Shown here: positions 5,611-55,830 of the stretch, in pieces
Layout of the letters: each line of letters opens with the position of its first letter
Position numbering within the stretch: position 1 is the stretch's first letter
From: Atractiella rhizophila
Taxonomy: Eukaryota
Direction: 5' to 3'
Assembly: GCA_021432655.1 (NCBI GenBank)
Contig: MU271309.1
Coordinates: 1-64,000 of the forward strand
DNA length: 64,000 nt
Notes under the pieces: model-generated
Seen by the model: the letters and a program-made list of their open reading frames with translations, nothing else
Told to the model about the DNA's origin: nothing
Databases searched by the model: none
Translations under genes and position numbers: made by a program

Positions 5611-6084
5611 TCCGGGTTGCTACACTACTGGAGTGCTGACCATGGCGATGTACTCCCACGTTTGGAGGAAGTAAAGCCCCTATCCCTTGACCGCAGTGCA
5701 TTTGGGAATGTGAGCTATGGCGAGCGGCGTGTCCCGGTTCAGTCCCTTGAGGATTCAGCCACGAAGCGTCAGTCGACAGCGGGACACAAGTGGACGACGG
5801 TGCTGTCAGTCTTAATGGCCGAGGACATGGCCTGCCCATTGAAACTGTGATAGCGCGGCCAGTTCATCATGTTTGGTTTCTTCTGCTTGGTAGGGGCCAT
5901 ATTAGTTTGTGTGATGGATGAAGGGGTACCAAATGCGATGACCTCGACTCCAGCTATTTGTCATTCCAGGAGGCTGAGACTGCAGATCTAAAGGAACAAA
6001 GAGCTGACCCAGAACAGGCATGCGACCACGAAAGCTTCTGTAAAAGAAGTGTCATAGCTTGCATATTCAGAGCGAAGACAATAG

Positions 6085-9460: not shown

Positions 9461-9464
9461 TTCG

Positions 9465-12092
9465 AACGCTCACCAAATACTCCTCACGGGAAACTTCAGG
9501 GATAGCAGGAACCCACAAACGGGATGCGAAGGCTCCCAATACCCTCCATACTTCCCAGAGCTCCTTCGACATCAACCTGTCATCAACCATTGGTCGCGTC
9601 GCCCATGTCATGACCTGCATCAAGATCTTCAGTTCCTTTCCTACCAGTGATCCTCCATATTGGATGAGGTATTCGGCATTGATGGATGATCCAGAGTCGA
9701 GCGTGGCAGTACATGCTGCCTCAAGTTGAACCCGAAGTCGCTCCTTGAAGGTCGGTGTGATCTTGAAGATTGTGCAAGCCCAGACATACTTGACAATTCC
9801 CAGAAGAACCGTATGAAGTACTTCAACTGGTGTCTGCTGCGTGATGTCAAAACCTGTGGTTCCAGTCAGTACTGGTTCTTTGTTTAACTCTCCTACCTTT
9901 GAACTTGTACAGTAAAAATGGATTGCAATATGTTTTTAAGAGAATCTTGTCGATATCCTCATCGAGGAGTTCTTGACGTTGGGGAAGGGAGTATTTGCCG
10001 CTTTAAGACTTTTGCCATGAGAGAAAAGGGTGCTGATGAGATTCTTTGCGATATTGTCGCGTGTTCCGCTACTCGTTTGAAGGTCATCAAGTCGCTTTTG
10101 CACTGCTTCCTTTGTCACAGCAAAAATTTCGTGTAGATGTGAGATGATTGAGGCAGCAGAACGACACTCTCCGATCTGTTGGACTGATCATCCTACCATG
10201 GCAATAGGAAAGATGAATAGCGAACCTTTAATACTGTCTCAAATCCAGATACGGTTTTCTTTTCCTTTGTTGTACCGCCATAACGACAAACACGACAAGG
10301 GAAGTTGGCTATAACTCCCATATGGCTTGCAAGTTCCACGAGCATAGGATTATCACCCACAACGAGGATAATCCATGGTCGAATTAAAACGTGTTGATGC
10401 AGAAGACAATCGTAGACTTTCAAAGGTTCAGCAAACATTTGGCTACTTGAGGACTAAGAAGAAATGTGCATTATGAAAGGAAAGACGTACTCAAACTGCT
10501 CTACAATGGCAACTGCCATCTCGAGTGGGTCAGCCTTGCTTGATGTAGCAAGAAACCGGATGTATCCCTCGAGCTCTTGGACCTTTCTTTTCAGTGTGGC
10601 ATTACTCGCGTATAGGTTGTAATGTTTGTTCCATTTTTTCGATCGAGTGCCTGAGGCATCGTCACAAAAAATTTGGATTGGAACATCAAAAACCGGCAAT
10701 CCAGCAGCTTTACGACGAAGCGGGTTCGGAATAGCATGGGGTAAATCTAGGAAGAGATTAGACAGGGCAGAATGTTAGTGTCAACTTACCACACTCCTTG
10801 AATGTCAGCTGAGTTCGTGAGTTGAGCTCGTGCCAAAGCAATTTCATACTGTTGCATGGAAATGTTGTCCTAGATTCAGATTTCAAAACCCAATATCCGT
10901 CAGCTGCTTTCACAAAAACCGAAGCTTCGCCAAATTGTTGTCCGTCATCTTCAAACCAGCAACAAGGCCACACAAATTGGCCATCTTCCAACTGGACGGG
11001 TTCGTGAATGTAAGCATGGCGTACAGCTCCTGTATCGTTCCAGATCATAACCATTTGAGGGCAGTGAGTTTCCGGCACGTCTTGATTAAGGAACTCTCCG
11101 TCACAGATTTCATTCAAACCTCCATTTCGTCGAGGATAGAGATTCATCTCTTTCCGACACAGAGGGTTGCCAAATTCCTTTTCAATAATTAGATTATGAC
11201 CAGACGAGACATAACATTAACTCACTCTCTTCAGAAAGTTGGCAATACTATTGGTATAAAAGATGTTGCCATTGCATCCGTCGTGCCTGCTTTGTTGGAG
11301 ACCACCAAGAGCCTCGACAATTTTCTTCCGTTCTTGCTGAACCGCGTTGAACGTTGGAACATTCGAGGCATTCATGGCTCTGGCATATGCCAGAATGATC
11401 TTGATCATTTCGTCACTGACGGGATGTCGTGGTATTGTAGTGATCAGATGTGTCAAGAACAACTAGTAAACATCAATCGAATATTTCATGCTGGAGACAT
11501 CAACGCACCGACTTGCTACTGAATGGTGTCCAATTTTCTCCCACATCACGAGCCATTGCAGTAACTATGCTTCCCAATGCATTATCAATATCTATATCCA
11601 CCGTAGAACCACTCATATAAGTTGCCAAGTATTCAACTTCCATCTCAGCGGCAATAGCATCAGTTGAAGCCATAGCTTGCCAGAAATACGAGTCTTCGCG
11701 ATGTGGGAGTTCAGCAATTGCAACATCGCGTGCATCGAATCCTCTCCAGTTCTCAGTTGACGAATGGTTGGTTTGGGAGAAGGTAACAGACTCCGTGTCC
11801 AGACTTGGCGCACAAGATGTGAGGGCCGGAAGTAAGGTTGAAGGGATTGGTAATGATGAGATGGATGTGGAGCTTGAAGTGATAGGCTGGGCCAGCTTGA
11901 GGGCATTTTGATGGCGAACATTTTTGAGGTGCATGTCAACTCGTTTAAATGCTTCTCCGCCACACAGACCACAGTTGTAAGAGATGCCATTACCAGTTAT
12001 ACCTGATTCAGCGTGAGTATTGGTGTGTCTGAAGCAGGAGACTTACCGTGAGGCAGACCAAACTCACCATCCTTTTGCTTCTTCGGTGGCAT
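9465..12092 (-). pseudogene. Plavaka/CACTA-like fungal transposase ('DDxSG..SKKWNKH' family), 3'-truncated, multi-intron
   Basis: FCDDASGTRSKKWNKH, VGDNPML..HMG..CRVC, TPVEVLHTVLLGIVKYVW and SLVGKELK. The N-terminus has a zinc finger (CGLC..H..H). ATG is at 12092. The superfamily label is from motif memory. Confidence 0.75.
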
Positions 12093-14591: not shown

Positions 14592-16300
14592 GATGGCTGC
14601 CGCCTCCGACTGATTAAAAGGCGGTTGGAATGATCTATAAAATACAGCAAGAAAACAGTAGAACTTGAAGTAGTGCCTGCAGCCACCAGACCACTCAGCT
14701 GATTTATATAATGATAACGGAGAAGACATCATGACAAGCCGTCAAAGATGTGTAATATAAGCACTTTCTTGCAGTAAGTTGCATCACTGAGAAGGTTGAT
14801 GGCACCGATCCAGAACGCCTTCGAAGATGCAGCCACTTCCAGTAACAGGTCTTGGATGGATGGATGTAGATGACCAATCCTGAGCTTTGACTAAGGCTCT
14901 TAGAAAGATGAAGATGATAGACAGATATCATGCAGTACAGGGTAGTAAACAACAGAACCAGGTCACCTTTATTGCAGAGAACTCATAACGAACGTGAAAT
15001 CCCGCAGACTGTGCACAAGCGGAGCAGTCATCTCTCCAAAGATGTTCATCAGTTTCGCAGGGCCAATATGCATCTGTCATGGCATGCACGCAATCGTTCA
15101 TTATATCTCGGACAAGCTGCAGAGAGTGGGTTTATTCCTGAGCTGGGCAGACAGTGAAGGTACATCGCAGTCTGGGCCTCCCTATTTTCAAATGGATCAA
15201 ACTCTGCATTTGACTGTGCAGGGCACAGCTCATTTCAGATAATTTTCCAACGGCAGTGTATGCAAACAACAGTGTAAATTACTCATGCATGATATACCTC
15301 GGCAAAGGCAGCAGTGCTGGAGTATGTACCTTTTCTGTACGGTATACAATGGTTGCAGCACCCAAAGCTGCACAGAAGGGTGCGAACAGATAGAAACAAG
15401 CCAAATGCCGTGCGCCGTGCCACCACCGGCTGCCAAGAATAGCCCAGACGTTTTGAAACCCAGGGCGGCCAGGGGTGGCGACACAGAGAGTCAACTGTAA
15501 TGCGGTGGAAGCGGAAGGCAGAGGCTTCGCGCCCTGTCAAAAGCCGTTTGGTCACTTTTGGCCAACTTTGGTCGTTTTCGGTCACTAACCAAAAAGGTGG
15601 CCAATCGTGACCAATGTGGCCAAAAAATGTACACTTTGGCAAATCTTCTGGTCACTTTCAGAAAGCAGAAACCTACAAATCCCCTCGTTTGGCCACTTTC
15701 AGTCACTCCTTAGTCGCTTTCTAGCTTTCCTCAAACGTACATTCCTCAGCCAATATTAGTCAAAATTAGTTGCGATTAGCCAAGTCTTGTATTTACACGA
15801 TTAATCCAAATCAATGCATAGATTATAAAAAGAGAGATCCGTAAAATGTAGGCACGAACATATGTAGAAAGCGAGACCGTGAGTGGTGCCTGCTTTGGAA
15901 TCCGTATCAGCGAGAGTGGAAGTACTGATAAGTCCTTACTGTCAATTCTAAGCAAGAGCTGGCGGGTAAGGGAAGACAATGTCCAGAGGTACTTGCTCCA
16001 GCCCTTTACCAACGTTGCGCCAGAACTGCAGTGCATAAATACGTATGATGGTCAGTGTCATGTTCTGTTTCGAGCGCAGGCGAAAATCGACTTGCCTGCT
16101 GCCTCCGGTCTCCTAGCAAAGAGTACTCTGCTCTGATAGCTCTGTGGGCCTCTTTCGCGGTCTTTCCAGGGCACGTAGCTGCCCACGAAGCATGATGAGC
16201 ATTCTCGTAAGCTAATCTGATCCTGCCATCAGCTACTGCACTGTAAAAGCTATACTGAAAAAGGCTTACTTTCCACTAATCTCCCTCGTGCTCCTCGAGA

Positions 16301-18840
16301 CTATTCACTGCCATTAGATCCATTTGAGGATGAATGTGAACACACACCGCTGCCTCCAGAAACATCTTCACCGCCATCCACTGCTCTCTTCCCTCTTTCA
16401 CGTTCCCCACGTCCTCCCGTTCCAAGTCCAGAACCTGCACCATTCGTCGTATCTACACCTCCGCCACCGCCTCCACTCGCAATCGCACCCACACTTCTGC
16501 CGCCACTTCCAATTTTGCTCACACCCACACTTCTACCACACATCGCGGTCGCACCGGTGGGTTTCTGGACTCTCGGAATCGCGACAGAAGGGAGGGTAGG
16601 AGGTGGGATCGATCCGGGAGGTAGATTGAGCAATTGGGTTAAGGAGCTGAGGCTGGCAGGAGGTGGTTGCTCGCTGGTTGGGATTTGAGTGGAATGTTCT
16701 ATCTTACATGGAGAGCAGCTAATTTGACGAGATGACAGACAGACCTGCAGTTGAAATATATCCGACTTGTCTGCTCTGCAGAGCAGCATCAGACACACTG
16801 AGTGGAGAACCGGAAGGAATATCAGGCTGGAGACGAGAGCTGGGCCATGCAGTTTTCTGAGAAGCGTGAGTGTGTGACGCTATAAGCAAATATCAGTCAA
16901 GGCAAAAGAAGTGCGAAAAGACAACCTTCTGTTTCAAAAGTTGGATGTCCTATGATTGGCCTGGGATGCTGAGCGCTGGTTGAAGCGTGAACAGCGGGGG
17001 CAAGGTGAGAATTAGGACGGCGGGTAGGTCGGAGAACGCACCGTTAGCGAGGAGGAGGAGGGACGATGCACCTGCACCGTAAGTAAGATCAGCGCAAACG
17101 GACAACAACAGAGCGCGCACCTGCCAATGGATCTGCTGCAGCGGGAGGGATGTAACTACCTGCATCAAACCCTGTGCCAGTAGAAACATCGTCCACAAGA
17201 TCCTTAATAGGTTCCTGAACACCGTCGTCACCACTTCCCGCCCGATTGGTCAATCCCCCTGGCACAAGTTCAGCCGCCTCCATTGTCATAGTAATCGCAG
17301 TACACTCAGTTCCAGGAGGAATGAATGTGGATGGAGAAGTGACAGATTGGGAGTCACACGTTTGAGAGCGGAGGGGAGGTTCGGTGAAGGTATACGGTTG
17401 GAGAGGAGGCTGAGGCTGCTGATTCGTGTAATCTGGGGAGGGGACGTTTGTCTCGACATTGAGATTCTCAGCTCTACATAACCAATCAGCTGTGTTCTCT
17501 CTCAAATGAAGACCTCACACGTTTATAGAGGGACTATCTTCGGCAGTAGTCGCTTTCTTTTTCTTCCTCAAATAAATATCATCATCTCCTGATTCCTTGC
17601 GCTTTTTACTTGTCTTCCTCTCTTTGGAATTCACTTCCAGGGGACGTCCGGTATTCTTCAAGATGGGCTGGGAATCCTTCAGTTCAGTCTTGATCTGCGC
17701 TTTCTTCTCCGTAAGTACAATACTCCGTTTCCTAGTATAGCTTGCAGTATTGAGAAAATAGAGAGCTTTGAAATAACCATCACAATAGCCGAGGAGAGGG
17801 AAACGTTCGATGAAGGCGTGTAAGAGTTGATTGGTATACGTGGAGTCTATTTGGCTGTAGTTCTTTCCAAGAAACCGCTGATCGTTCGCTTTCGCACCGA
17901 AGCACTCTTTCCAGGCTGTACCGATCCATTCCCTGATCTGCTCAGTTTGGATAGGTGAGATTGGTTGGCCGTCTTCACCCTGAATGAAGTCCTGTGTCGT
18001 TCCTTTCCGCTCATCTTTTCCGAGCTTCTTGTAAGCGTCATTCCAAGCCTTGAATTCCGCACTTGTCCAGCAGGTTATCATGGGGAAATCGACTCGGTTG
18101 AATCTTGGAATCGCGGTAGCATCAGAACTGCGTCGGTATGGTTCCGGGAGACTAAATGACGATCTGGAGGATTCATGAGGATGAGGCAGTGGCTGAGCTG
18201 GAGGTGGTGTGCGATTGTAATCTTTAAAGCTGTCATATAGCGATCTAACATGCCCATTGCATATGCATCATAATGTGTACTAATAAGTGCGGATGGGAGA
18301 ACGGACCTGAGAACCCTAATCTCGGTCTGCAGAGCTATATTCTCATCATGTGCTCGTCGATACACAGGACTGAAAGCGAGAAGATCAGTTGTCGTGACAC
18401 TGGCCAAGATTTGCCGAAGATTTGGGGGCTCTGAAAGGGCTAGATTATGGTGAGGCGATATCGGCGAGCCTAGGCGTGAACGACCTCGACCCTCTATAGT
18501 GTTGAGGTTGAGATGACGATTCCAGAGTTGAGAAGGATGGGATGGTTCTGGTGAATCCCTGGATGGGGTAGATAGTCGAGAGGTTGGGGTACATGATGAG
18601 ATGTTGCTTGAACGAGTGAGAAAGTGAAAGTTTGGTGACAGAACACCTAAATCAATGCCTTTAATACCCATTTCACAGCGAAACAAGAACAAGAAAGAAC
18701 GGACCGGCTGCAAAATCAACACTACTTTCGCGCTCACTGAAAGAAGCTTCTATCCCATTGCTATTTCCAAGTGCAAAATCCAAATCCTCCTGTGAATGCT
18801 CGCTTTCCTGATCATCTGATGAATAATCTTCAGAAACCAT
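16301..18840 (-). CDS. Accessory (ORF2) protein of the EnSpm-like element, multi-exon
   Basis: Long exon ORFs (18078-18737, 17515-18081, 17089-17505, 16301-16798) lie inside the TIRs, divergent from the transposase. The segment FIQGEDGQPIS..IR..W..FPLLGYC resembles basidiomycete transposon-associated hypothetical proteins. Confidence 0.55.
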
Positions 18841-18979
18841 TACACCTTCAGTTTGAAAAAGAGAAATGTGATGTTTAAAGAGGTTATTGTTTACGTGGAA
18901 TATACTTAACTGAGAAGTTAGTTGGACGTATTTGGTTATATTGTCGGTAACAGATCAGAAACAGAGATAGAGGATCATT

Positions 18980-21900
18980 ATGATGGAGAGTAGACCAATG
19001 CATCCTTCTAAGAACTATCGATGGTGTACTTGTAATAGATGCAGGAAGGAGTCCCACAGTGGGAAATGGGTGCATCGTCATACGTTTCGAAAACATCAGG
19101 TCGATCAGCAAGATAAAGGGCCTATGATGGAGACTTCATTAGATGATGATATGAACTACAATCAGGATGATACAGAAGATTCTGATAGTAATGGAGAAAG
19201 TCATGTCAGCATTATTTTCTATATTTGGGCATTTATGTAAACGGGAACGTATATAGTCAGATGGCCCGAACCAGATGGAGATTGATGATGCCAGCGTCGG
19301 GCGTCCTGCTTCCCCTAGAAATGACCAACCTCGGTCCTATATAACAGATACTCCTCAGCCAAGTTCTGCCGATGAATACTCCAGCAGCACAAGTTCCTCT
19401 TCCACTGAGGAAGAAGAAGAAGAACTTGCCAGTTCTGAGGTAGATCCTAATCTCTTGACTAGTACGCCACTTTGAAACAGTCTGAATATAACCTAAACAT
19501 ATGTGATAGCACATCATCTTGAAGACTTCTTGTCAAGTGATCATCACTATCGAGAAATGCTCAAGGAACTCACGGAGAAGGATGTAACGTTCAGCATGAT
19601 CCCAGACTCTGAGAAGTACCACTATACACCGCTATCCGAAGACGAGCTCTTCTCTGTCGAGCTTTTCATGGCCTGTAATGGTCGAGCCTCTGATGAACTG
19701 TATAAGGATCTACGCAATATCATCTCAGCAAGCTCAAACCGAACTGTTCTCTCCCTCTTTTGTGTCAAGCGATTAATTGAAAAGAAGAGTCAACTGATTC
19801 CTCAAGGTTTTGATATGTGTCCTGCTCTCTCCTGTGTAGCTTTCACCGGTCCACGAAAGGAAAAGACATACTGTCCAAAATGTGAAGCTGCTCGCTATGA
19901 TATCTTCAAGTGTCGGGGAAGAGAAGCAAAGAGATCCAAACAAAGGTACTTTATTGTCCCCTTTGAAGTAGCGATTCAAGCACGTTGGTCAACACCACAA
20001 GGAGCCTCAGCATCCAAACATCGTGCCAGGTGTACAAAGGAGCTTCTGCAACAATGCCCTCAAACTGGCAATCTGCCCAGACGGTTTGATGATGTTTATT
20101 GTGGCTCAGACTATCTCCGGGCAGCTCGTGATAACATCATTCGCCCTTCAGATTCAATGGTGTTTCTCTCAGTCGATGGAGCCCAATTATTCACCAACAA
20201 GAAACCGTCTGATGCAGTCTTTGTCATCATGATCGACTATAATCTTCCTCCTCATCTTCGCTATCTTCAGCAGTTTTCATACCTCTCTGCATAGTACCAG
20301 GTCTAAATAAACCATGGGATCTCAATTCATATCTCTATCCCATATTCGAACAGCTCAAACAACTGTCACAGACTGGATTTCCAATATTTGATGCTCAAAT
20401 AAAGACATGGTTTCGATCACGACCTTTCCTGGGTCTAGGCCGTTTTGATACCATATGTGCAACTGAGCTGGCTGGCGAAGTAGGGCATAATGGACGACGG
20501 GGTTGTCACATTCAGGGATGTGCAGCTGTAGGAGTGCACAAACCTGGCGCTTCAACTTATTACTGCCCTCTTCATCGTCCTGATGACTATCGTGAATCTG
20601 AAGCTCTACGGCCCAACTAGGATCCTCGGAACCTGCCAAGAGAATCTCCATCACAGTATCGAAAGCACATTAACGATATCATGTCCGCTGCTGCCACTGG
20701 AAATCAAACTCGAGCGAAAGAGTTATCAACCGAATACGGCATTGTCCGTGATTCTCTCTTCTCTGAGCTTGTTACTCTAGGTGGAGGTGTTCCTTATTGC
20801 TTTGTTGTGGATGGGATGCATCATCCAAACCTCAACTTTCCTCAGCTCATCATCGGCTTATGGCGTGCTACAGTCCGGCCGGATTGGCAGGCTGCAAGTC
20901 ATAAGAAGGGGAAACGAAAACGTGGTGATGATGGTAATCCACTACCTGAAGGTATGGCCGCCCATGATTTTCTCCCCTGGCAAGTTCTTTGGGGCAGGAT
21001 TTGGGAGGAACATGGAACACGTGTTGAGGCAACACGGATATATCTTCCAGCTTCATGGGATAAATATCTTCGAAACATTGATATCAAGTTTTCTGCCTAT
21101 AAAGCAAAAGAATGGGAGACTTACTTCCATGGAGTTGCACCTGGACTGTTGGAAGGAGTTGTACCAGAGCCATACTACACAAATTATCTCAAGATTGTCT
21201 CTGCAATCCGGATTCTTCGAAAGCGTGATATCTCCTCTGTGGAGCTCGATCTAGCTGAGAAACATATCATTGAATATGTTGAAGAATTTGAGCAGCTTTA
21301 TTACCAGAATGATATTGAACAGGTTCACTTTTGCCGTCCCTCTCTTCATAAGATGCTTCACCATGCTCAACAAGCTCGCCGCCTCGGACCTTTTATCTAT
21401 ATCACTCAGTGGACCCTGGAACGAACAATAGGTATTCTTGCTTCTCGTATCAAGCAACCTTCGAAGCCCTATGAAAATCTCTCACAACAGTCAATACGGC
21501 AGGCCCAATGTCAAGCCCTCCGCACAATTGATCCATCTCTTCTGCACAACGAGCGAGTCAACAACTTACCACGCGGAGGACTCCCTCTTCCAGGGGACAA
21601 GGCTCTCCTACCTGCCAGAGAGTGGTGCAAGATAGACGGCAATGAGAAAAAAGCAATTCAGCAATATCTAATGAAGAATGGATATGACGCTGCGGAGTGG
21701 GACTGCTATGTTCACAAATGGGCACGACTGCAACTCCCGAATGGTGAAAGTGTACGCACATTATGGAAAGAATCACAACGTCAACCCAATTCAGTCCGTG
21801 TCAGTCGTCAGATCAAGTATCAAGGAGCTATTGTCAATAGTCACGATAAGACTAACTATACACAATATGGTGAGGTTCAGTACTTTCTAGAACTGACTGT

Positions 21901-22120
21901 AACAGAGAGAAAATTGTTTCTGGCTCTCATTCATCATCACCAAGGCATCCAACTTCATGACAGATATGGTATTGTAATATCTTGCCAGCCAGGTAACAGT
22001 GATACACAAGAGTTGGTGGAAGTGGAGGATATAGATGAAGTGGTGGCTATTATTCCAAGGCACTGGATGATCGATTGGTTCATAGTTGAGAGGCTGGGAT
22101 TGATAGTGAATAGTGATTAG
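18980..22120 (+). pseudogene. EnSpm/CACTA Tnp2-like (Transposase_21/DUF4218-type) transposase
   Basis: N-terminal CTCNRC..H..H, DMCP..C..CPKC, LSVDGAQL..YNLPPHLRY, VDGMHH, HKMLH and QWTLERTIG. There is one frameshift at ~20280 and an in-frame TAG at ~20618, where the paralog has TAC. Confidence 0.9.
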
Positions 22121-22869
22121 GGGAAATGAAACTACTTTGCAAATTCTACTTCATTCGTAAAACAAGTAGATCACTGGATTCTCCCTTTACAACTGCTTCA
22201 GGTAACTGTCACCTGATTCCATTTCCACCTCTTTGTTTGCCTTTCAATCCTATCAATCTTGTAACCTTTGACATATATGAGGTGCATATCTTTTATTTTA
22301 TTTTATTGTTTGCTTCAGAGACAGACACATTGCATTCATAGACACTGGATCAGCCTAAATTGTATTCAAGATGAATCGTTAATCATTCCTACATTTTGCA
22401 TTCAAGAATATTCGAGTTCGAGAGGTTGACCACTTTTGTGAGGCGGCGCAAATCTCCTCGGAATTGATTGAGCGCAAAACCCTCGGGGCGACCAACGTTC
22501 CTGAGCCGAGAGAACGCGGACCGAGAGGTGGAGCGGCGAAAAATGCCCAAAAATGCCCAATTCCGACTAGCAAGTGACAGAAGTGCCAAAAAGTGACCAA
22601 TCCATTTTTGACAGGGCTTCGTGCTTCTGCATCTAAAAACCAAGTGTTCTCTCCTTGATTCTTCCCTCCATTGCCTCTTCAACTGAGCTTCGACAGCGTC
22701 AATTCCAGCTCACACCACCTCTCCTCTAACCCACAGCCCTCCACTTTGCAATCACAAACGACTCCAGTCATTCCAGGAGCAGCAAATTCCTGCCCAATCC
22801 TTCACAACAACACGTCAGCTTACCTTGCCTTTCTACGCGACAAGAACGTGCTGAGTCTTGCAGAGTAAT

Positions 22870-24294
22870 ATGGCACCTTCGCACAAAGTAAATCTTTACA
22901 TTCTTGATGATAAAAAGGGGTGGGGAGTGTGACTTTTTTTGCAAAAGGCTTTACATCCTTTTGCAGTCAAACACATACTTTCGCTACCATGTTAGTTGTT
23001 TGATGGACTGGAACTCCTCCATCAAACAACTAATAACTGTAGACAAGATGCTATCGCTGGAACTCCCTTTAGCTTCTTGGACTTACAGGTTTGGCTCCGA
23101 AAGAGGCTGTTGACCGCAAAAGGTTTCTGCCTACCCTATTCTATTTCTTTTTTGCTTCTGTCCTGATACTAATAACAATGGATCTAGCCGAAATTTCCTG
23201 AATATGAAGATCCAACCAAAGCTCAATGGCTGGAACATGGAGCCAGCGACAGCTTCTGGGAGGAATGACTTCGCAAAGCAATCAATGCTTTGCCAACAAC
23301 AGAGTGGGAGTTGAACAAAGGAAATGCAAGATATGTCCGTAACTGGAATAAGCTTATAATTTTCAAATTCGCACTATTATCATTCCTTTCACTCTTCAGC
23401 AACTTTGTAATTCGTCTTTAAAAACATTGAAGAAAATTAGACAAAATAAAACCATCATTTAGAATTTGTTGAAACAGATGTAAAGTTTGTCAGTAGTGAT
23501 GGACATATATTGCTTATTTTCTTGAAAGATAAACTCCATATTCCCTTTGGTCCTCAATTTGCAAATAAAGCTTTTGTAGATGCCTCCAATGCAGTTTCCG
23601 AGTTTCTTTCATTGACAACTGTTACTCCTCCAAAAAGTTCAGATTCTCGATGGGATCAAAAGGAAGTTGAGCATATGAAAGAGAAGGATCAACCAGTCGG
23701 AGCAATATTCACAGGCTTGTGGAATGCTCTTGCTCATCCAAGTGATGAGGTGCTGGTTTCTGCTGACACCAGAAAATCCGCAATTAAGTAAGTGATCCTC
23801 ATTCTTTTCTACGTCCTACGTCCTAATCAAGTTGCAGCCTCAATTATGTGCACTGGCTCTATCAAAATCTCACGCCATTCATTCAAATCATTGAATCCTC
23901 GTTCCAAGTTACAGCACCTGCCACTTACTCTCATTATCACGAACTTGCCCAGCTCGCCTCAAAACTCTATCCAATGGGTTCAACCTTCTTCCCTTCCCGC
24001 CGCTCCTCCCGACTCTCCCTCGGTATCATTGCCAATGCGTCTATTCAACCTCATTGTGATGCAAGTAATAGAATGGAGGGGTTTGACTGGATGAGTGTGT
24101 TTGGAGAATTCAGAGATGGTTATTTATTTGCAGAGGTTGGAGGGAATTCTTATAAGTTCAACTACAAACCACGCGACATTGTTGGGTTGAAGGGAGGAGT
24201 TATTGTGCACTGGGTCAGCAAATTTGAAGGAGAACGAAGTGGCCTGGTGTGGTTCTCTCATAAAGACACTCAAGCGAGGATTCAAAAAGAGTAG
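22870..24294 (+). CDS. TET/JBP-family 2-oxoglutarate/Fe(II) dioxygenase (putative 5mC/T oxidase)
   Basis: C-terminal double-stranded beta-helix signature PHCDASN (HxD)..SVFGEFRDGYL..YKPRDIVGLKGGVIVHWV (H)..GERSGLVWFSH (R, aromatic). The upstream exon (GAIFTGLWNALAH) splices in frame through a GT-AG intron at ~23789-23836. The 5' exons are tentative and include a TGA at ~23266. Confidence 0.8.
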
Positions 24295-24559
24295 GCACAC
24301 TTTCTGAGCTCTACTTTGCTTAAGTCTCTAACACCGTGACAAGGTATCAAGAGAGGAAAGTTGAATTTGAGGCACATCATGATATGAATGGGATCGGTAG
24401 ATAGTATTAACCTCTTTTGAATTATCAAAGAAGTTGAACAATCCTAAGTCTGATTTGCTGTTTAGGATATAGCTATTTAATTATTCATTGCATTTTCATT
24501 CAGTCTTCTATCCTTGGAAACAGTGCGAAGGGAAAGTCCATGAAAATGTTATCAAAATC

Positions 24560-26247
24560 AGCCACAATAGGCGACTAGAAATCTTGAGCATGAGTATTTA
24601 TGATGAAATGAAGGCAAAATACGTACTGGTGGCTCAGGCGTGCCCCTGGTAGAAACTTGCTTTCTCGCAAGACCATGCACCATGTGGACAATATCAAGCA
24701 TCGGTTCGGTAGAATAGTGGGGGTGAGACTGAACCTTGATGTGATGTGAAGCCATGTCTTATAAATTCAATCAAACAACGTACCAAAGGTTCAGGTGGCC
24801 TTGTAGAACTATCGGACTGTTGACTGACACGACTATTGAAGACAGTTGAAGTGAAGTAAAAAAACTGCAGTACAGATAAGCTTGATTGTGCAAGCATATA
24901 TAAAGACTGACCTTGTTATGCAACAGCGCCTCCAATCTGATTCTTTCTCAACCCATATCAGAAGTAATGGTCGGTCATGTATTTCCTGAGTTAAACTTGA
25001 CCATGCCAAAGTTAGCATACCCTGTACTGTTTCAAAATCTGGAACAGGCAGAGTCGCCTCCGAAAGTGGAACAATTTGCTGCTGAATAGCTGTCCATTGG
25101 TTCCAGAGTCTTGTGGCACAGTCTAAATCATCCTTGAGTTGTCTCTTCAGATCTGCATTTGCCTTTTTAGTTGTGTTTCGATATTGGGAGTTAATATTTC
25201 TCTTTATTTTTTGCAGTGATTCGACAACCGTCGTGACGTTCTGATGAATCAAAGATGGGAAGTGAGATCTAGATCGATTCTTTGTCTTCTGACAGAATGT
25301 TTGCCGAATTCGTTGCTGTCGTTGATCAGTATTTACTGCTCTAGACATAAAAGAGTTCTGAGACAGTGCGTGAATTGAGATTGACTGTGCCTCAGCCAAC
25401 TGTAGATTTGCAGCATCTCGAAAATCTATACTCCTCCGTCTAACGGTCTGATCACTGACAAGTCACCACTTTGAATCAAATCACATACTCGATGATGGCC
25501 TGCGGCAGTGGTAATCCTACCCCAACCCGAGCATATTGATAGGCATGAGCTTCTTCAACTAAATTTGATGAATGTGCAACTTGATCCCAGATATTCCGAG
25601 GAATAGGAGATAAAGCTGGAACTGAAGATGTCCAGAACCAGCCAATTGAATCCTTATTTGTCAACCAATCTGCAAATATACTCTATTTGTAAGCTTGACA
25701 AAGTGAAGCAGAATAAATCAAACCTTTTAGCACGGTGTTGTCAGCTGCTAGCTCTTGCGCAACCACATACCACAAACGAAAATCTAATTTGGAGAAGCAA
25801 TTCATGAACTGTTTCATAAATTGTCCTATAGTCTTTGCCTTGATGGGAGCAGCGCTGATCAGATCCTCATACACAAGATATTGACGTCGCTTCAAATCGG
25901 GCTGATGAGAATCATTGTAAAGAACGTTTCGCTTGAATAGTAGGATCTGTAGCGAGTGGAGAAACCATAGATTGGAGATTCCTAAATGGATATCAGAATA
26001 TGGCTATACTGGTAGATAGAGAAGTCTTACCGGTAAACATGAGTCTCACATGTTAAGGATGTATGAGAGATTGTATCTGCTGTAGAAGGTGGCCAAGATG
26101 GAGTCAGCTTCCAGCCCGGTAGGCGTTCAGTGGGATACCGATCAAGGATAAGCTGTCGAAAGTAATCCCCCAGCATCCCATTTGCTTGGCCCTGATGTAA
26201 ATCGCAGATGATGATAGGGCCGTTCTGGAATTTGTTGAAGTAGAGAG
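24560..26247 (-). pseudogene. Mutator(MULE)-like DDE transposase, 3' part
   Basis: IIICDLHQGQANG (second D), a degenerate ..FKRNV at the CxxH position, and W..IPRNIWDQVAHSSNLVEEAH (E). It continues the gene split by the hAT insertion. Confidence 0.65.
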
Positions 26248-26515
26248 TAGGCTTGGTACACGGGGAACCCGTGGCCCCGTGGGTTTTTCCGGGAGGTTTT
26301 GGCGCTCTGATGCCATCCCGTACCCGCCCTCGAACCCTCAAGGGTTTCCCCGTCGTTGCAGGGGCATTCCCGCAGGATTGCTGGGAGGGGACGCGAGCCA
26401 AAGGGTTCACGCGACACTGACGGGATTGGAGGGGCGATATCAATATTATTATCCATGTACTCTACTAACCTCTCTGCACAGTTCAATAATCATTAATCAT
26501 TCACCTATCAATCGA

Positions 26516-29500
26516 TCAATCAATCACCATGCTTCCCTCCCCGCGCTCCGCCTCCGCCGCCGCCTTCTTCCTTGCCGCCTCTGCTCCCTTCCTCTTCTTC
26601 CTGTCATTCTGTTTCACAGCTCCAAATAACTCCTTCATAGGAGGCATGAATCCATCCTGCTCCCAGAGCTTGACCATCATGGCCGAACGAAAGACGGGGT
26701 CCGACAATTGATGACGCAAGTAAGAAACCGTCAGACGACCCCCTGAAAAGGCACGCTCAACATCCACCGAAGTTGCTAGCACCTTCAATCAATGAAAAAA
26801 ACAGAGATGAATGAAGCTGCATACCTGGGACTGCCATAATATCCATGGCCATCTCGTGGAACTTCACACGGAAATGCTCCTTTGCGCGCTTCGCCTCTCG
26901 CCATTGCTGATAGTGGTACTTGAGGCCATCCAATTCTGTTGTCCCAGAATCATCCTGCAGGGTCTTGATAGGCAACGGGACACCTTTGATAAACTCTACA
27001 AGGTAGTCGGCAGTGGAGGTATCGTCTGCATCGTCAATCATTGCGTCGAGTTCGTACAATGTCCGAGCCTTCTTTCGTAGGCGTGGCACAGAGGTGGACG
27101 CCTGTGAGCAACAAATTAGGACTTAATTGTGGGAAGGAAAGTATAGAGGTTCCGGGTTGGACGCACAGAATTACCCGTTTCTGCTTTGTAATGCTGCTGC
27201 TGAAACTCCTGTAAGCTATCCATGGCTTCCATGATCCAAGCCTCTTCCCAATCCAATTTTTTCAAGTATGCAGCCCGGCGGTTGGGATGAAGCACTTGAG
27301 TATCTGTCAGTTTCAATGCTGAAATGTTTGAGTAGTGAAAACCTGCAAAGAGCCCATAGATAGATCTTCGAATCTTCAACTACTTTCAGAAAATATTTTG
27401 TCCAAAACTGCCTGTGCAGTTGCAGCGCCCGCTTGGACAGCAGCGTGCTTGTCAGGGAAGTGGATTTCACCATCAAGCTCGTAAGTTTCATAGAGGCGAG
27501 AGAGATGGACACCGATATTATTGAAGAGGGGGATGACACTGGCTAAATTGGANNNNNNNNNNNNNNNNNNNNNNNNNNNNNNNNNNNNNNNNNNNNNNNN
27601 NNNNNNNNNNNNNNNNNNNNNNNNNNNNNNNNNNNNNNNNNNNNNNNNNNNNNNNNNNNNNNNNNNNNNNNNNNNNNNNNNNCTCAAGTTTTAAGCTCGG
27701 TTTACCACAAAGATTTCGCAATGCGTCCTTCAAGTCTATTGCTCGATCAATCATCGCACCTTCGCCATTCCAACGTGTGGGACAGGCTTTGACAAGGTGC
27801 ACAGGAGGAGATAGAAACTTAAGAGGTCCTTCAGGATCCTCTTTTTGGAGAGCGGCAACCTCGTCGTCAAGTTTGCTTCTAAGCCCATCGTTCAAGGCTG
27901 TCCTTTTGGCCAGATTCACAAGCTATTTTGTTGATTAAAGGACGGTGAAGGGTGAAAGACAATACATGTAGCGTACCTTCGTGAGCATGAAACGTGCCTC
28001 TAATTCTTCCTTCGGAGAACAAGTTGCTTTTGGAGCAGCCTTTTCCCGAATTAGATCAATTGCAGCCGCTTGTGCTTGCACTTCTTCACTTTGGTCTATA
28101 GCAGAAGCGTTAGATTGTTAGACCAATTTGCTAAACCATACCTTCTAGTTCTGCTTCTTCAGTGAACCCCGACTCCCTCAGTTCTGCTTCCAATTGTGAT
28201 AATGCCACTTCATCCGCAGTGATGGAAGTCCCAATGCCTGCTATGACTCGTTTCTTCGTAACTGGCTTCTTGAAACGACTCAAAAATCCCTGGACATTGC
28301 CTCATCTAATCAGTCTCCCATCACATTTTACTGCCAGAACCGTACCTTTGCAACCAAGTTGAGTATGTGGTCAAAGCATCGCACTCGCAAATCTGCTCTC
28401 CAGAGAAGCATCTTCGGATACTTGACCCTTTTTTCCATTGCCATTGTGAATGTATCGTTGTTAGACGCACTGTCGCATGTTGGAGCCATGACCTGCGCAG
28501 AATGTCAACTCTCGAAGAAAGACTCCATGAGCAGACTTGAACACGCACCCTCTCGCACACTTCATATGAATCCAATAAGCCATAGACCAAAGCAGCAATG
28601 TTATCTCCCGTATGTGAATCAAGAACCCTGTTCCTAAATTAAATGGGTTCTCACAATGAAGGACTTTGTACCGAATGAAACCAAGAGCAACTTTCTTTGC
28701 ATCTCCCCGCTCGTGGAAGTGAAGGTAGACAAGGACATAACTGAAGCCCTGAGGAGCTGTCCAGCCGTCCAGCGTAATGAAAAAGTTCCCAGGAGCAGCC
28801 TTTGACAGTTATTAGTATTGTATATAGGATTCAAACTCGGCACGTACCGAAATTCTGGCCTTCACCTTAGCGCGCACGTACTCCTGCAAGAATTTCGCAT
28901 CCTCTACTACTCTGTGACGATCAATGTTTGGAACACTCTCTGATCCACTGTTCCCAGGCTTGAGGATCTCTCGGAAATAATGATCGTGTGTGACATTGAA
29001 TGGACGAGCTGAAGTGGTGCACCAGAGAGCGGCAAGGACACGTCGGTACGTGTCGCGGTCCGTCTGGTCTATCACATTGACTCATAGCTGATTCTCGCTG
29101 ACCACAAGTTTTGTTTGCTGGCTCTTTGAAGATCCTTCGTCGCCCTGTAGACAGTCTTTTTAGATCCTTATCTAAAGCTCACAAAAGACCAACCTCGACG
29201 CATTTGTCGGCGCTAACTTGCAAGCCTTTGGTGCTTCCGTCATCGCGAGCACGTTCATACGTGTGGTTCAGGTTGGTCTTGCAGACAAACGTGTAGAAAA
29301 TGCGAAGTTCTCCTGACTTTCTACCAGATCGCGTGTCCTTCAGATAGGTACCGCGACGAAGAATTGGGCGTTCGTGATAATGAAGATATACGCTCGGTTT
29401 GTCGCTATTCTTTTGAACTTTGGACCTTCCCCAGCGTTGAATATCGAAGTCTATTGTAATATCAGAAAAAGATTTGGATGGAGTCTCGGAAGAAGACCAA

Positions 29501-29730
29501 CCAATGATCTCATCATCCTTCCAACCGTCAAAGCTGCTGTCCATCTTGAAGTCCACCCCTCGTGGTAGTTCCCGAGCGTGCTTTCGAGGGGACCTGCGAA
29601 TGGCATCCCCAACATCATCATCTGATGAATCAAGCTCGATGGTAGCAATATTTTGAGGGTCAGGGGTTTGGCAGGGGCTCTGATGACTGGTGTCGGAATT
29701 CATCGAATCTTTCCGAGTGCGCTTGGACAT
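26516..29730 (-). CDS. hAT transposase, multi-intron, with an apparent frameshift at ~27400 and an assembly gap
   Basis: ARPFN, TLDGWT, CDSASNNDTF, CFDHILNL, CPTRWNGEG, VLHP, and the dimerisation motif ATSVDVERAFSGG. Confidence 0.9.
27553..27682. other. Assembly gap (130 N)
   Basis: Run of N. Confidence 1.
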
Positions 29731-30522
29731 GATGGAATACCAGACAAGAAATGAGTGCAAGTGATTGCCAGGAAATCAGTCCTGTTTTATAACTTTTCGC
29801 CTCTGGGTACGGCCGATAGAGGCAATCCTCTACCAATTGCAAGGTCAACAGAGCACACGGATGCGGTATGTCATCCCCAATGGACTCGTCCGAAGCAGGC
29901 ACTGACAATTTTTGTGTTCCAGCAGCCAGACAGAAGCTGCCGATAGCCATCAACAGCACATCCATTTGCTGGGAATTTGAATGTTTCATTTATTTCTTTG
30001 TGCTGCTCTCATCGCAGGGACTCAAACCCATCTGCACAGTTCATTCAAGGAGGAGCACATTCGGTACACTCACCGTCAGAGAACTTCTTTGGAATCACAT
30101 AATTTTGCCAATATTCTCATCCGGGTTCTTTCAGAAGCAGATTGTACTCTAAGCTTTTCATAGCTCTTTCTCCTATGCCCGCGCAGAATCGAGTGGAAGG
30201 CATCCAATTCTCTCTCCCGCTCACCCATGACATAAAAAAGGAAGGAATGACGGACTGTTCGAGGACTGTTTAAAATCTCGGGCTCTACTTTCAAGTTAAG
30301 ACGGGAGTGAAGCATAAGATCAAGCGTGAAACTTGTGCACAGTTGCTCGAGAAACCGTGCAAACCAACGGGTAGCCACGAGTTTCGAATTCGTAAATGTG
30401 TTTCCCGTCCCCTTCCCTTCCCCAGCAAGGATTTTCCCGCCGCTCCCGTGGGATCCCCTTAAGGGGAAGGGGATGGGAGGGTCACAGGTTTTGACGGAAT
30501 CCAAAACCGTGTACCAAGCCTA

Positions 30523-37344: not shown

Positions 37345-39250
37345 ATGAGGGAAATCATTCATCTTCAAATCGGCCAATGTGGCGTAAGTTTTCGATCCAC
37401 CGTCGAAAAAGTAACGGGTTTGGAATGCTGATAACATTGAACGGATGGTAGAACCAAATTGGTAGTAGTTTCTGGGAGGGTACATCTAAATTTCTGTTTT
37501 CTCCCGAAGTTGGCGAATGGGGCAAGAGATTGGGGAGTTCGGGGTCGTGCGCCACAGTCGAGTGATCGGTGCTGATTTCTTCTTTTTCTCCGGCCACAGT
37601 CGTCTCTGACGAGCACGGACTTGACCCCACTGGAAAGTGTGCTGCTCTATTTTTTTGAAGGTCCAATGATCAATTTTCGTTAGATACAAGGGGAACAACG
37701 ATCAGCAACTTGATCGTATCTCTGTCTACTACAATGAGATCAACGGTGCGTGACCTCTTCCTTCTGCTGCATGGTAAACCTGTGTTGAAATCTTTGCGCG
37801 AAGATCGCGAAGGCAACAAGTATGTTCCCCGAGCGGTCCTTATCGATCTCGAGCCTGGAACGATGGACACGATCCGCTCAGGAAACTATGGGAAGCTTTT
37901 CCGACCTGATAACTTCGTTTTCGGTCAGAACGGCGCTGGTAACAACTGGGCCAAGGGTGGGTCTTGTCTCATTTTGCTAATGGGTGGAACCGTCGTCAAT
38001 GAGTTTGTTCCTTGAACAGGATATTACACCGAGGGTGCGGAATTGGTCGACGCCGTTCTTGACGTGGTGAGGAAAGAGGCGGAGGGGTGTGATTGCATTC
38101 AAGGTTTCCAGTTCACCCACTCTCTTGGTGGTGGAACTGGTGCTGGAATGGGTACTCTTTTGGTATCCAAGATTCGAGAAGAGTTCCCCGACCGTATGAT
38201 GGCCACTTTCTCTGTCGTTCCGTCTCCCAAGGTCTGTCGTTTGGTTAGTAGATGCATGGTCGCTGAATTTTTCCGCAGGTCTCCGATACCGTCGTTGAGC
38301 CTTACAATGCCACCCTCTCCGTCCACCAGTTGGTCGAGAACTCAGATGAGACCTTCTGTTTGGACAACCAAGCTCTTTACGACATTTGCGAGAAGACGCT
38401 CAAGCTCCCCACTCCCTCTCACGACAACCTTAACCACTTGGTTAGCGTCGTCATGTCTGGTGTCACGACGTGCCTTCGATTTCCTGGACAGCTCAACTCT
38501 GATTTGAGGAAGCTCGCTGTCAACATGGTTCCCTTCCCTCGTCTCCACTTCTTCATAGTCGGATTCGCACCTCTCACGGCTGGAAGCTCTCAGCAATACA
38601 GGGCTGTCACCGTCCCTGAGCTGACCTCCCAGATGTTCGACCCGAAGAACATGATGGCCGCTTGCGATCCCAAGTTTATTACTTTCTTTCTATGTATCCA
38701 CGTTGTCCTCATTCCTGCTTCCTTAGGCACGGAAGATACCTTACTGTAGCGGCTTACTTCCGTGGAAAGGTGTCGATGAAGGAGGTCGAAGATCAAATTC
38801 TCGCTGTTCAGTCCAAGAATTCCTCTTACTTCGTCGAGTGGATCCCGAACAATGTTCTGACTGCGAGCTGTGACATTCCGCCAAGAGGGCTGAAGATGTC
38901 TGTTACCTTCATTGGAAACTCGACTGCCATCCAAGACCTCTTCAAGAGGGTTTCCGATCAGTTCACTGCTATGTTTAGGCGTAAAGCTTTCTTGCATTGG
39001 TACACCGGAGAGGGTATGGAGGAGTTGGAATTGTGCGTTTATACTTCCTTCATGCGTAATTGCTCCTTGATAACGTCTCTATAGCTCTGAGGCTCAATCG
39101 AATATGCAAGATTTAGTTGCTGAATATCAACAATACCAGGAAGTGTCTGTACGTCTGCTGGTTTGGACTGTTCTTCAGGTGTGTTAACTCAGTTTCTAGG
39201 CTGATGATGAGGAGATCGAGGGAGAAGAGGAAGTTTACGACGAGGAGTAA
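37345..39250 (+). CDS. tub2: Beta-tubulin (divergent, beta-2-like paralog), intact, about 10 exons
   Basis: [72 protein letters not shown], and an acidic tail ending in TAA at 39248-39250. GT-AG introns keep the frame. Confidence 0.98.
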
Positions 39251-40117: not shown

Positions 40118-41106
40118 AGGGCTGTTCACCGTCCCATCCGTCGAATTTTGAGCTGAGGCGGGAGCGGGGCGGCTAGACCCGTCGCCGTCGCCGTATCGCA
40201 TTGATCACCAACTTCCTTTGACGCTGACGGAGCGGCTGACGGTTCAAGATGGGTTGTTGATGGATGGGTCAACGGTGTAGAAGACATGCAATATTATTGT
40301 GTTGCTGTAAAATATATCAAAAAACAGAGAACAAACCTTTGCAACCCAAAACCACTCGAGCTCCTAGTTGATAAATATTACGAGCGGTGGGGCGAGCGGA
40401 ACTGCAAGGTGCGAGACTGCAAGGTGTGAGACCAATCAAAACTCTGTTATTGTATGTTCTATATGAGAATGAAATACATACCTGCAAGGTGCGAGACCAA
40501 TCAAAACTCTGGGTCTCACACTTGCAGGGGAAGTTATTTTATAGCATAAAAGCTGAGTAATAAGAAAAAGGAACCAAGAAAATATGACTTCATACCAGCA
40601 AGAGAAAGGAGGGTGCGTTTATGCTCCCGTGGCCCCATCACTAGTCACTATCCAATTCAAGAATCACATCCTTGGACAGATGTTGAAGATGGCTCAAAAC
40701 GCCAGGACCATTTTCCATCCTTCTTCCTATCAAGCATCCACCAAGAGCGTAGCAGCATCAGCTTTCGGATCGTCTCAGCCTTGAGAGAAGCACAGTGAAG
40801 TGAGATCATATCTCTGCCCGAAGAGAACACCCGCTCCACTGCTACCGCTGATGCTAATGTTAATGTTGCGGTATCAATATATCGAGTGAAGAATGAGGAG
40901 GTAAGAGAGGACATATCAGGAATACATAGCACACTCCGTGCCAGGGGAGCCAAAGCTTTGAATCGGCCACCTTTAGCCTGCCCTTGCCACCATGCCAGAG
41001 GATCCCCAGTATGAACATCAGGCTCTGTGTCATCAAGATTTGCACTGATTTTCCGAGATTCGAACGGCCACCATGTCACCAAAACATTTTGCCTTATTGC
41101 ATACAA
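40118..41106 (-). mobile_element. hAT remnant: 3' end with dimerisation domain and terminus
   Basis: DPLAWW..LARSVLCIP..AVAVERVFSSGRD..LKAETIR. A CCGTC/GACGG-rich subterminal tract begins GGGCTGTTCACCGTC at 40118. Confidence 0.85.
40402..40527. repeat. Short direct and inverted repeat cluster
   Basis: CTGCAAGGTGyGAGA occurs three times (40402, 40417, 40482); the last two extend with CCAATCAAAACTCTG. An inverted copy GGTCTCACACTTGCAG is at 40512-40527. Confidence 0.85.
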
Positions 41107-53778: not shown

Positions 53779-54018
53779 GAGAGCTTATGGCAAATAGAAA
53801 CTTACAGAATGTTCATGAAGAAAGTATTACTAACATTTCACACATCTCCAACAAATGGTGTCTAGCATTGTAGGCGATTGGTCAAGTGGTGTTAAGGAGT
53901 GGTAGGGGCCACCGAGGAAGAGGTTTGAAGATGTTGTCAATGCTTACACATCCACTGGAATTAGAATTAACAAATACCAGAATCAGGGAATGTAAAGACT
54001 TGCCATTGCCATGCCTCA

Positions 54019-55830
54019 TTGTTTCTACGCCACACTGAAGCTGCTGCCTTTGAAGTCACTCCATCCCCATATCCCTATAACCTTGACTTCTATGTTGTGC
54101 CTTTCGAAGTTCCACTTCAAGCCCGTTGGTCGACTTCAGCAGGAGCCAAACTATCGAAGCATCGAGCTGAACAGACTGCTCTCTTGACCAAATCCTACCC
54201 TCCTGGAAGCATGGTTGATGAACTCAATGACATTTACTGTGGCTGTGATTATCTTCAAGCAGTACATGACCTCAAGATTCTTCCAACAGATTGTGTCTTA
54301 GCGCTTTCCCTGGACGGGGCACAAATCTACAACACGAAGAAACCTTCAGACTCTATTTTCATCATTCTTATCGACTATAATTTACCACCAGAGGTCCGCT
54401 ATAAGCAACAATTTGTTATCCCACGGGCCATTATTCCCGGCCCATATCCACCGTGGAATCAAAACTCTTTTCTTCTCCCAATCTTCGATCGCATCATATC
54501 TTTGCATGCAACCGGATTTCCTTTGTTTGATGGCGACCGTGAACACTGGTTTCGATCTCGGCCCTTTGTAGCATTTGGCCTTTTCGATACTCTCTGCCAA
54601 ACTGCTGTTGCTGCTGAAGTTGGGCATAATGGGTGAATGGGCTGCCATATTAATGGATGTACATTGATAGTTGCGCATCAACCTGGTGCTCCGACCTACT
54701 ACTTTCCTCTCACATGCCCCAATGATTATTTTGAGCCATTATCCATGCAGCCGAACTACGATCCTTACAACCTTCCCACGGAGACTCCGGATCAATAACA
54801 TGCCCAGGTTGCAGCCATTCTACAAGCGAAAGCAAACAATCAACCAACTCTTCAGAAGCGCCTTCAAAGAGAGTATGGTATTGTTGGAGAAAGTCTATTC
54901 TCCCAAATCGAAACTCTGGGAGGTGGCCCGCCTTTTTGTTTTGTTATTGATGGGATGCACCACTCTAATTTCAACTTCACAGAGTTGATGGTTGGGTTGT
55001 GGAGAGGCATCATACGGCCCACTGACAAGAAGACTAAGAAAACAAGGAGTTATGGCCTGGGGAAGGGAAGACCAATGCTGAGGCTTAGGAAATCCCTGCT
55101 ACAGATCAACTCCCTTGGGAAACACTTCTGGGAGCTCACTGGCAACAGCATGGGGTCGAAGTCGCGAACACTCGATGTTTTTTGCCCAGTTTCTGGGATA
55201 AATTTTGTCGCAACATTGACATCAAGTATTCTGGCTATCGGGCGAAAGAGTAGGAAACCTACTTCTATGGTTTAGGTCCTGGTCTCCTACAAAGCCATCT
55301 TCCATCTACCTACTTTCAATATTACCTGAAGATCGTCTACTGCATGCAGGCTTTACGTCAATGAAGCATCTCTCAAGATTTGCTCAACTTGATCGAGAAG
55401 CTGATAATCGAATTTGTCCTTGAATTCGAAGATATTTACTATCAGAACGACATTAAAAGGCTTCATTTTTGCCAACCTTCACTGCACAAGTTGCTCCATC
55501 TTTGTGAACAAACATGACATGTAGGGCCTTTTATTTACATTACTCATTGGGCTTCTCGGATCTCGAATACGCCAACATTCAAGACCTTATGAGAATCTGG
55601 CACAGGAAACCATGCGACAAGCTCAATGCCAGGCGGTATGCTCCATCGACCCAACTCTTATTCTCCCTCAAACACAGCGGCCGCCACCACGAGGTGCCTT
55701 GCCCTTAGGAAACTCTTTCAGTTTTCTACGCGCTCGAGAGGCTGATGTGCAGCTACTTCTTTCCACTGAGCGTTCTGCAGTTGAAGCCTATCTATCATGA
55801 TTGGTTCATTGTGGAAAGATTGGGTGGTTT
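54019..55830 (+). pseudogene. Second EnSpm/CACTA Tnp2-like transposase, degenerate paralog of 18980-22120
   Basis: VPFEVPLQARWST, LSLDGAQIY..KKPSD..YNLPPEVRY, DGMHH and LHKLLH. An internal deletion jumps to DWFIVERLG. Multiple stops. Confidence 0.9.

Follow-up and report, generated by a model that had tools for sequence, protein, structure and literature searches.

A CcTet-like TET/JBP gene, probably transposon-borne and recently inactivated, beside a decayed CACTA-superfamily transposase in a likely Atractiellomycete

The window, i.e. the whole stretch of 64,000 nucleotides that was analysed, contains on its forward strand a gene with the features of the TET/JBP family of 2OG-Fe(II) dioxygenases, located downstream of a decayed transposase, a second copy of which is found some distance further along. 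These features, arranged by position, are the following:

18980..22120, + strand: decayed CACTA-superfamily (Tnp2, Plavaka/EnSpm-like) transposase, copy 1 (homology to copy 2; weak DUF4218)
23188..23338, + strand: putative 5′ exon in the frame of 23188, with a TGA in frame at 23266-23268 (codon usage, phase match)
23339..23462, + strand: putative intron of 124 nt, from the 5′ exon to exon A (inferred from the sequence; alternative paths exist)
23463..23787, + strand: TET/JBP exon A, N-terminal strands and helix of the fold
23788..23837, + strand: intron of 50 nt, GTAAGT...CAG, phase 2 (read from the sequence; the junction recurs in the relative P0002)
23838..24294, + strand: TET/JBP exon B, catalytic core, with HxD at 24052-24060, the distal His at 24208-24210 and the 2OG Arg at 24235-24237
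53971..55800, + strand: second, diverged copy of the transposase, stop-ridden (Transposase_21; no TET near it in the window)

Two stop-to-stop open frames, 23450-23791 and 23827-24294, are read at the TET/JBP locus. The frame of exon A is open from 23450 and its likely acceptor is TTTAG/23463, at which the homology of the relatives to the genomic DNA also begins (23459-23492; tblastn of 80 relatives against 22001-24500). The last two exons had been claimed to splice in frame, and this was borne out: the donor GTAAGT at 23788 and the acceptor CAG ending at 23837 leave a split codon AA/C that preserves the frame into exon B (coding 23838-24291, stop codon TAG at 24292-94), and the junction ...SAIN/LNYVH has its counterpart ...STIN/LNYVH in the annotated protein P0002, which is 95% identical. 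Spliced together, exons A and B form a domain of 260 codons with neither a stop nor a frameshift, which aligns end to end, from about residue 3 to the C-terminus, with P0010 (262 aa) and P0005 (253 aa), exon A being colinear with residues 3-112 of the former.

Concerning the catalytic residues, the segment HCD supplies the His (24052-54) and the Asp (24058-60), the distal His is that of VHWV (24208-10) and the 2OG-binding Arg that of EGERSG (24235-37). In the alignment of 28 sequences, composed of exon B and 27 of its 80 hits—hand-chosen, mostly the longer ones—these residues, numbered H72, D74, H124 and R133, fall on invariant or nearly invariant columns, that of R133 being kept in at least 90% of the sequences. 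The statement of the original prediction that HxD, the distal His and the 2OG Arg are kept thus agrees both with the near-invariant columns and with the alignment to the corresponding residues of CcTet, the TET enzyme of Coprinopsis cinerea. Judged by its sequence, the catalytic domain of this TET/JBP copy is complete.

The family assignment was approached from sequence, profile and fold. Scanned alone, the 151-aa fragment encoded by exon B matched only Tet_JBP in Pfam (E 2.8e-5), with 23.9 bits against a gathering cut-off of 34.9. Its four distinct matches at E <= 10 among all PDB sequences are all TET enzymes, namely CcTet (8jkk and 7vpn, at 5e-5) and Naegleria Tet (5cg8 and 4lt5, at ~4e-4 to 5e-4); in the alignment with CcTet, HCD is placed on H-R-D, VHWV on LHGV and GERS on GERY. 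Against 1.84 billion representative proteins, exon B gave 80 hits at E <= 1e-3, nine of them at <= 1e-10 and two at <= 1e-30, and because exon B alone reaches E 5.8e-45 with its best relative, chance similarity is far exceeded. The Tet_JBP family is matched at E <= 0.01 by 27 of the 28 aligned sequences (best E 5e-17), and the family profile searched against the PDB retrieved CcTet (1e-14) and NgTet (4e-10) as its sole matches. The AlphaFold models—that of exon B with pLDDT 94 and that of P0010 with pLDDT 89.9—gave the same picture in Foldseek: for exon B, CcTet comes first (E 3.6e-8, TMq 0.74, rmsd 2.9 A over 141 columns) and the first non-TET oxygenase only at E 2.1e-4, and for P0010, CcTet (6.6e-16) is followed by NgTET1, human TET2 and CMD1, and then by FTO at ~3e-5. 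Of the 30 feature hits obtained in the language-model Atlas, 29 belong to Tet_JBP sets, mostly of Basidiomycota. It should be noted that a metagenome scan with exon B gave 64 pattern matches, none of which was confirmed, and that a search for its longer homologues gave 205 candidates with none scored, the latter being a weak blank, since P0001 and P0003, two relatives retrieved from the representative proteins, were missed by it.

The membership of the gene in the family of CcTet-like TET/JBP 2OG-Fe(II) DNA dioxygenases is therefore regarded as well supported by the sequences and the predicted folds. The comparison of Tet_JBP with other 2OG profiles, proposed earlier as a check, was performed and ranks TET/JBP first, with the 2OG oxygenases not acting on nucleic acid far behind; since the Pfam, PDB sequence, profile and fold searches all put TET first, the best hit is not one to an oxygenase of the latter kind. 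The two observations that could speak for another 2OG-Fe(II) oxygenase, not acting on nucleic acid, are the score of the fragment under the Pfam cut-off and the weak matches of some aligned sequences to TauD (2 of 28) and 2OG-FeII_Oxy_3 (1 of 28); set against the lead of TET by orders of magnitude in every sequence, profile and fold search, and against the E-value of the best relative where a mere chance open frame is considered, they leave this explanation a negligible probability.

As far as the 5′ end is concerned, exon A offers no in-frame ATG ahead of an internal Met near 23672, which in the P0010 model follows two well-predicted strands and a long helix, and a product begun at this Met would miss about a quarter of the fold. 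The putative 5′ exon upstream ends at a phase-1 donor, GTAACT at 23339, the phase of which fits the exon A acceptors at both 23462 and 23477; the frame from 23188 reads as a plausible protein, with no ATG downstream of its TGA. The codon-usage log-odds, trained on 13 coding pieces of the window and correct for 42 of the 47 chunks (150 nt each) of a leave-one-out trial, amount over 23188-23338 to 5.39 for the frame with the TGA versus -1.65 and -14.38 for the other two, this same frame being the one in which the stretch 23304-23338 scores as coding; when the score is restricted to 23188-23303, the two leading frames hardly differ (2.99 versus 2.49). The tblastn search with the 80 relatives against 22001-24500 revealed no credible homology upstream of 23459 (best E 0.03-0.09, some of it on the wrong strand), and a search with the 5′ exon translated past its TGA (written as X) yielded one candidate, none scored and no homologue. 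The original prediction had placed a TGA at ~23266 in the putative 5′ exons; the codon itself is there (23266-68, + strand), and its membership in an exon is made plausible by the codon score and the phase, with no homologue to back it. The TGA is thus real and the exon around it likely.

A deliberately loose enumeration of start paths, allowing 13 donors, 32 acceptors and up to three introns, produced 50 that lead from an ATG to exon A with no stop; one of them, for example, avoids the TGA by proceeding from ATG 23204 through the donor GTGGGA at 23304 and an intron of 159 nt to the acceptor at 23462. The splice sites in all 50 paths are inferior to those of the GTAAGT intron of the same gene, and no in-frame ATG appears to reach the domain through a well-supported splice model. 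These paths matter for the view that the gene is still functional, i.e. transcribed with a 5′ exon free of the TGA (such as that with ATG 23204 and donor 23304) or with an upstream exon, and encoding an active TET that would serve the element family in trans. All 260 codons of the domain are open with H, D, H and R intact, stop-free paths exist on paper, the frames over 23188-23303 score nearly equally, and the reading frames of cargo TET genes are described as mostly undisrupted in passages of Kojima 2025 (PMC12730594). The donor GTGGGA and the 159-nt intron are, however, atypical in comparison with the 50-nt GTAAGT intron of the gene, and the stretch 23304-23338 codes, by score, in the frame of the TGA; moreover, the gene is depleted in CpG, its partner transposase is dead, its nearest paralogue is frameshifted, and for a copy of this age, chance alone would leave a frame of 780 nt open. 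A gene still at work is thus a tentative option, which we consider possible but on the whole rather improbable.

The transposase copy 1 occupies the same strand as the TET gene, its stop being located ~750 bp upstream of the first ATG (22870) of the putative TET 5′ region. It is composed of the ORFs 19497-20291, 20243-20617 and 20621-22117 and a probable first exon from ATG 18980, and its ORFs have no significant Pfam hit, just a weak one to DUF4218 (E 0.0016). Copy 1 and copy 2 share 54-55% of their amino acids, and since an ORF of copy 2 (53971-54633) matches Transposase_21 above the cut-off (E 9.5e-10), copy 1 is assigned by this similarity to the CACTA, EnSpm or Plavaka group, within which Plavaka and EnSpm are not separable here. 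The partner transposase had been described as disrupted, and the comparison of the two copies agrees with that. Copy 1 bears two lesions, one being a frameshift of 1 nt near 20265-20275, where ...RYLQQF is followed by the shifted ...IPLCIVPG versus the continuous RYKQQFVIPRAIIPG, and the other a nonsense TAG at 20618-20620, at which copy 2 has TAC. Copy 2 contains at least two stops of its own.

With regard to the borders of the possible element, no inverted repeats with an 11-nt seed were found in 16000-30000, and a directed scan for terminal repeats returned just 13-of-16 matches at the level of chance, with no TSDs enclosing both genes. Termini of the type CATCA..TGATG or CAC..GTG with duplications of 2-3 bp were not identifiable around the TET/transposase pair, and the self-BLAST of the window revealed neither a second copy of the TET DNA nor element borders. 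When 1677 six-frame ORFs of the window were searched with the HMM of the TET family, exons A and B were the sole hits, i.e. there is no TET by copy 2, so that the adjacency seen at copy 1 could be a chance product of nested insertions. We infer that the TET gene is cargo within the element of the transposase, because the two genes are adjacent, share the strand and the decay, and have a precedent.

The window as a whole is eukaryotic, from a basidiomycete genome, and rich in transposons, since besides the Tnp2-family copies there are pieces of Helitron, hAT and DDE_1 elements detected by the Pfam scan of its stop-to-stop ORFs of at least 120 aa. Its remaining features are:

2342-2836, + strand: fragment of a DDE_1 (pogo/Tc1-type) transposase (E 2.2e-14)
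5208-5624, - strand: C2H2 zinc finger ORF (E 1e-5)
7498-9483, - strand: Helitron remains, ORFs split over several frames (PIF1 E 9e-29, Helitron_like_N E 5e-26)
24836-26461, - strand: chain of ORFs (209, 68, 106 and 144 aa), directly following the TET gene on its downstream side
26375-26440 and 51157-51222: direct repeat of 66 bp, 82% identical, G+C-rich (self-BLAST)
38016-39081, + strand: tubulin GTPase and C-terminal domains in three overlapping frames (Pfam; CpG 0.87)
40660-41172, - strand: hAT dimerisation domain (E 6e-12)
49102-49887, + strand: protein kinase ORF (E 5e-28; CpG 0.88)

The chain of ORFs 24836-26461, which matched no Pfam family and had no Atlas hit, gives no help in locating the end of the element and could represent its third gene or an unrelated one. 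The repeated DNA of the window is confined to the two transposase copies and the 66-bp repeat, which may be the terminus of a transposon family. Further downstream, the ORFs 26516-27922 (region 26516-28100, - strand) resemble by eye the C-terminus of a hAT transposase with no Pfam hit, these hAT-like minus-strand ORFs being interrupted by a run of N at 27553-27682. The spread of the tubulin domains over three frames could be due to introns or frameshifts. For the TET exons the CpG observed/expected ratio amounts to 0.50, for the 5′ region to 0.49 and for the transposase to 0.62, as against 0.87-0.88 for tubulin and kinase, and the kinase ORF looks host-like by this measure. The depletion fits a long-term methylation of the locus; it is a general CpG depletion, with no sign of the TCG-specific hypermutation reported for Pucciniomycotina.

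The closest annotated relative of the TET gene is P0002, a hypothetical protein of Atractiella rhizophila and the 95% identical paralogue already mentioned, which differs from the present copy in 5 of ~117 aligned residues and then, after ...NRMEG, continues in a shifted frame; the shift fits the loss of one nucleotide in the G run that the window's version has at ~24070-24080. The near identity of this paralogue suggests an Atractiella-like host from Pucciniomycotina for the present copy. As the two are only these 5 of ~117 residues apart before the frameshift, the TET family would be young, and at ~1% divergence per copy an open frame of 260 codons is expected without selection. In the library of representative proteins, the next-closest relatives are P0001 and P0003, both at ~55% identity. 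In the former, the 2OG Arg is replaced by His (EGEH), and the latter is devoid of the whole HxD segment, damage that suggests a widespread decay in this TET subfamily. The searches for homologues of exon B had no window-encoded protein among their database hits, which counts on the side of decay.

From two lesions per ~3.1 kb of transposase, ~0.5 lesions are expected in 780 nt, giving a probability of ~0.6 of finding none, and the value remains about the same when the TGA is included. The contrast put forward in the title of the original prediction—a domain intact amid decayed neighbours—is accordingly without statistical meaning over 780 nt. It is this contrast, the open domain versus the broken adjoining transposase, that provides the sole point in favour of a domesticated host gene, i.e. 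of a transposon TET captured and kept for the fungus's own epigenetic regulation. With the contrast being insignificant, such a domestication is further opposed by the transposon-rich stretch in which the gene lies, by its membership in a family with a 95% identical and decayed paralogue, by the lack of a secure start and by a CpG content that is poor as in transposons and unlike that of host genes, and we deem it very improbable.

The reading to which the evidence leans, with somewhat better than even chances, is that this copy is a recently inactivated, transposon-carried TET gene, in other words a pseudogene of recent origin. An active cargo TET, which would bind Fe(II) through H-x-D and the distal His and 2OG through the Arg, would convert 5mC to 5hmC, 5fC and 5caC in the DNA of the element itself, and this oxidation would counter silencing based on methylation; the present copy, having the whole 260-codon domain and an apparently broken 5′ end, would be decaying alongside the transposase. 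While the family, the fold, the catalytic residues, the splice junction and the lesions of the transposase are demonstrated, the cargo status, the substrate and the dead state are presumed for this copy, the dead state being favoured because no ATG reaches the domain by good splice sites, a TGA is present in the best-scoring 5′ frame, CpG is depleted and the closest paralogue is frameshifted. On the other side there are the catalytic domain free of any lesion, the 50 loose stop-free paths with the one from ATG 23204 dodging the TGA, the almost equal scores of the candidate frames over 23188-23303, the 5′ exon with no homologue, the absence of TIRs and target duplications around both genes, and copy 2 with no TET. 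Of the choice left by the original prediction between an enzyme either functional or domesticated and one recently dead, the last part has therefore gained ground and domestication has found no support, the site being transposon-rich and the family multi-copy.

Plavaka/EnSpm transposons equipped with a TET gene were reportedly first implied by Iyer et al. in 2014. With TET enzymes as cargo, DNA transposons would be able to remove their own silencing methylation, so new host lineages and new pairings of TET with transposase help to map how frequently such counter-defence is captured and exchanged. The present copy adds little alone, since it is probably dead and the phenomenon has been published; its value is rather that of a pointer to an Atractiella-like genome with a young CcTet-like family, intact members of which may be findable.

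Passages of Kojima 2025 (PMC12730594) report that TET/JBP genes are carried in Pucciniomycetes, Agaricomycetes and Pezizomycetes by 11 DNA transposon lineages, including Plavaka, EnSpm, Kyakuja and other elements, and distinguish three types of the enzyme—PU, AG and PE. Transposase-linked TET genes of basidiomycetes are thus already described, as these passages attest. The word 'Atractiella', the genus of A. rhizophila, which belongs to Atractiellomycetes within Pucciniomycotina, is absent from the main text of that study (PMC12730594), and it did not appear among the matches listed for the literature on TET, transposons and 5-methylcytosine, although this is a weak check, the word not having been required there. 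The exact words and peptide motifs of the present gene were not found in the supplement (PMC12730594), in which cells of more than 400 characters could hide a match. According to the same source, in the passages concerned, Pucciniomycotina yielded no TET+ Plavaka.

As for the types, the AG-type TET/JBP cargo of Kyakuja and Zisupton (PMC12730594) has in common with the present protein, when passages of the supplement are compared by eye, the P-H-x-D, an Asp ~9 residues on and the H..(F)EG-x-R, whereas the PE type has HxE where this protein has HxD; an AG-like placement of this TET is accordingly a by-eye proposal from those passages. The AG type as described there differs in being partnered by a KDZ transposase, the neighbour here being Tnp2/CACTA-like, and in being reported from Agaricomycetes, the host here being likely an Atractiellomycete, i.e. 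a member of Pucciniomycotina. The TET+ Plavaka/EnSpm elements (PMC12730594), by contrast, likewise have a CACTA-superfamily transposase beside the TET/JBP gene, but their cargo is reported in the passages concerned to be of the PE type (HxE) or the PU type, with sequences that look unlike this protein.

With respect to those parts of the study (PMC12730594), two things may therefore be new, namely the presumed class of the host and the presumed association of an AG-like TET with a transposase of the CACTA type. A stronger proposal would be that an Atractiellomycete has a CACTA-superfamily element carrying a CcTet-like (AG-type-like, HxD) TET, a host class and a combination of TET type with transposon superfamily that the 2025 catalogue lacks, and that the gene is maybe still expressed, either from an unusual 5′ exon or through alternatively spliced transcripts of the transposase, in the manner of En/Spm; taken as a whole, it is unlikely. 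If true, the CcTet-like TET on a CACTA element would mean either that such a gene was captured independently once more or that it was transferred between Agaricomycotina and Pucciniomycotina.

Among the enzymes with a solved structure, CcTet (7vpn, 7w5p, 8jkk) is the closest relative by sequence, profile and fold, its H-x-D, distal His and Arg all aligning with those of the present protein, albeit at an identity of just ~20-24% in the fold alignment and with 430 aa versus the ~260-aa domain here. Its residue D337, called essential for the oxidation of 5mC by Kojima 2025 (PMC12730594), aligns with an Asp found here in GFDWM, whereas the position of G331, linked there to the recognition of 6mA (PMC12730594), is occupied in this protein by Asn. 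NgTet1 from Naegleria (4lt5, 5cg8) is likewise a minimal single-domain TET of similar size, matching the present protein both by sequence and by fold; it is, however, more distant than CcTet and represents a host gene, not the cargo of a transposon.
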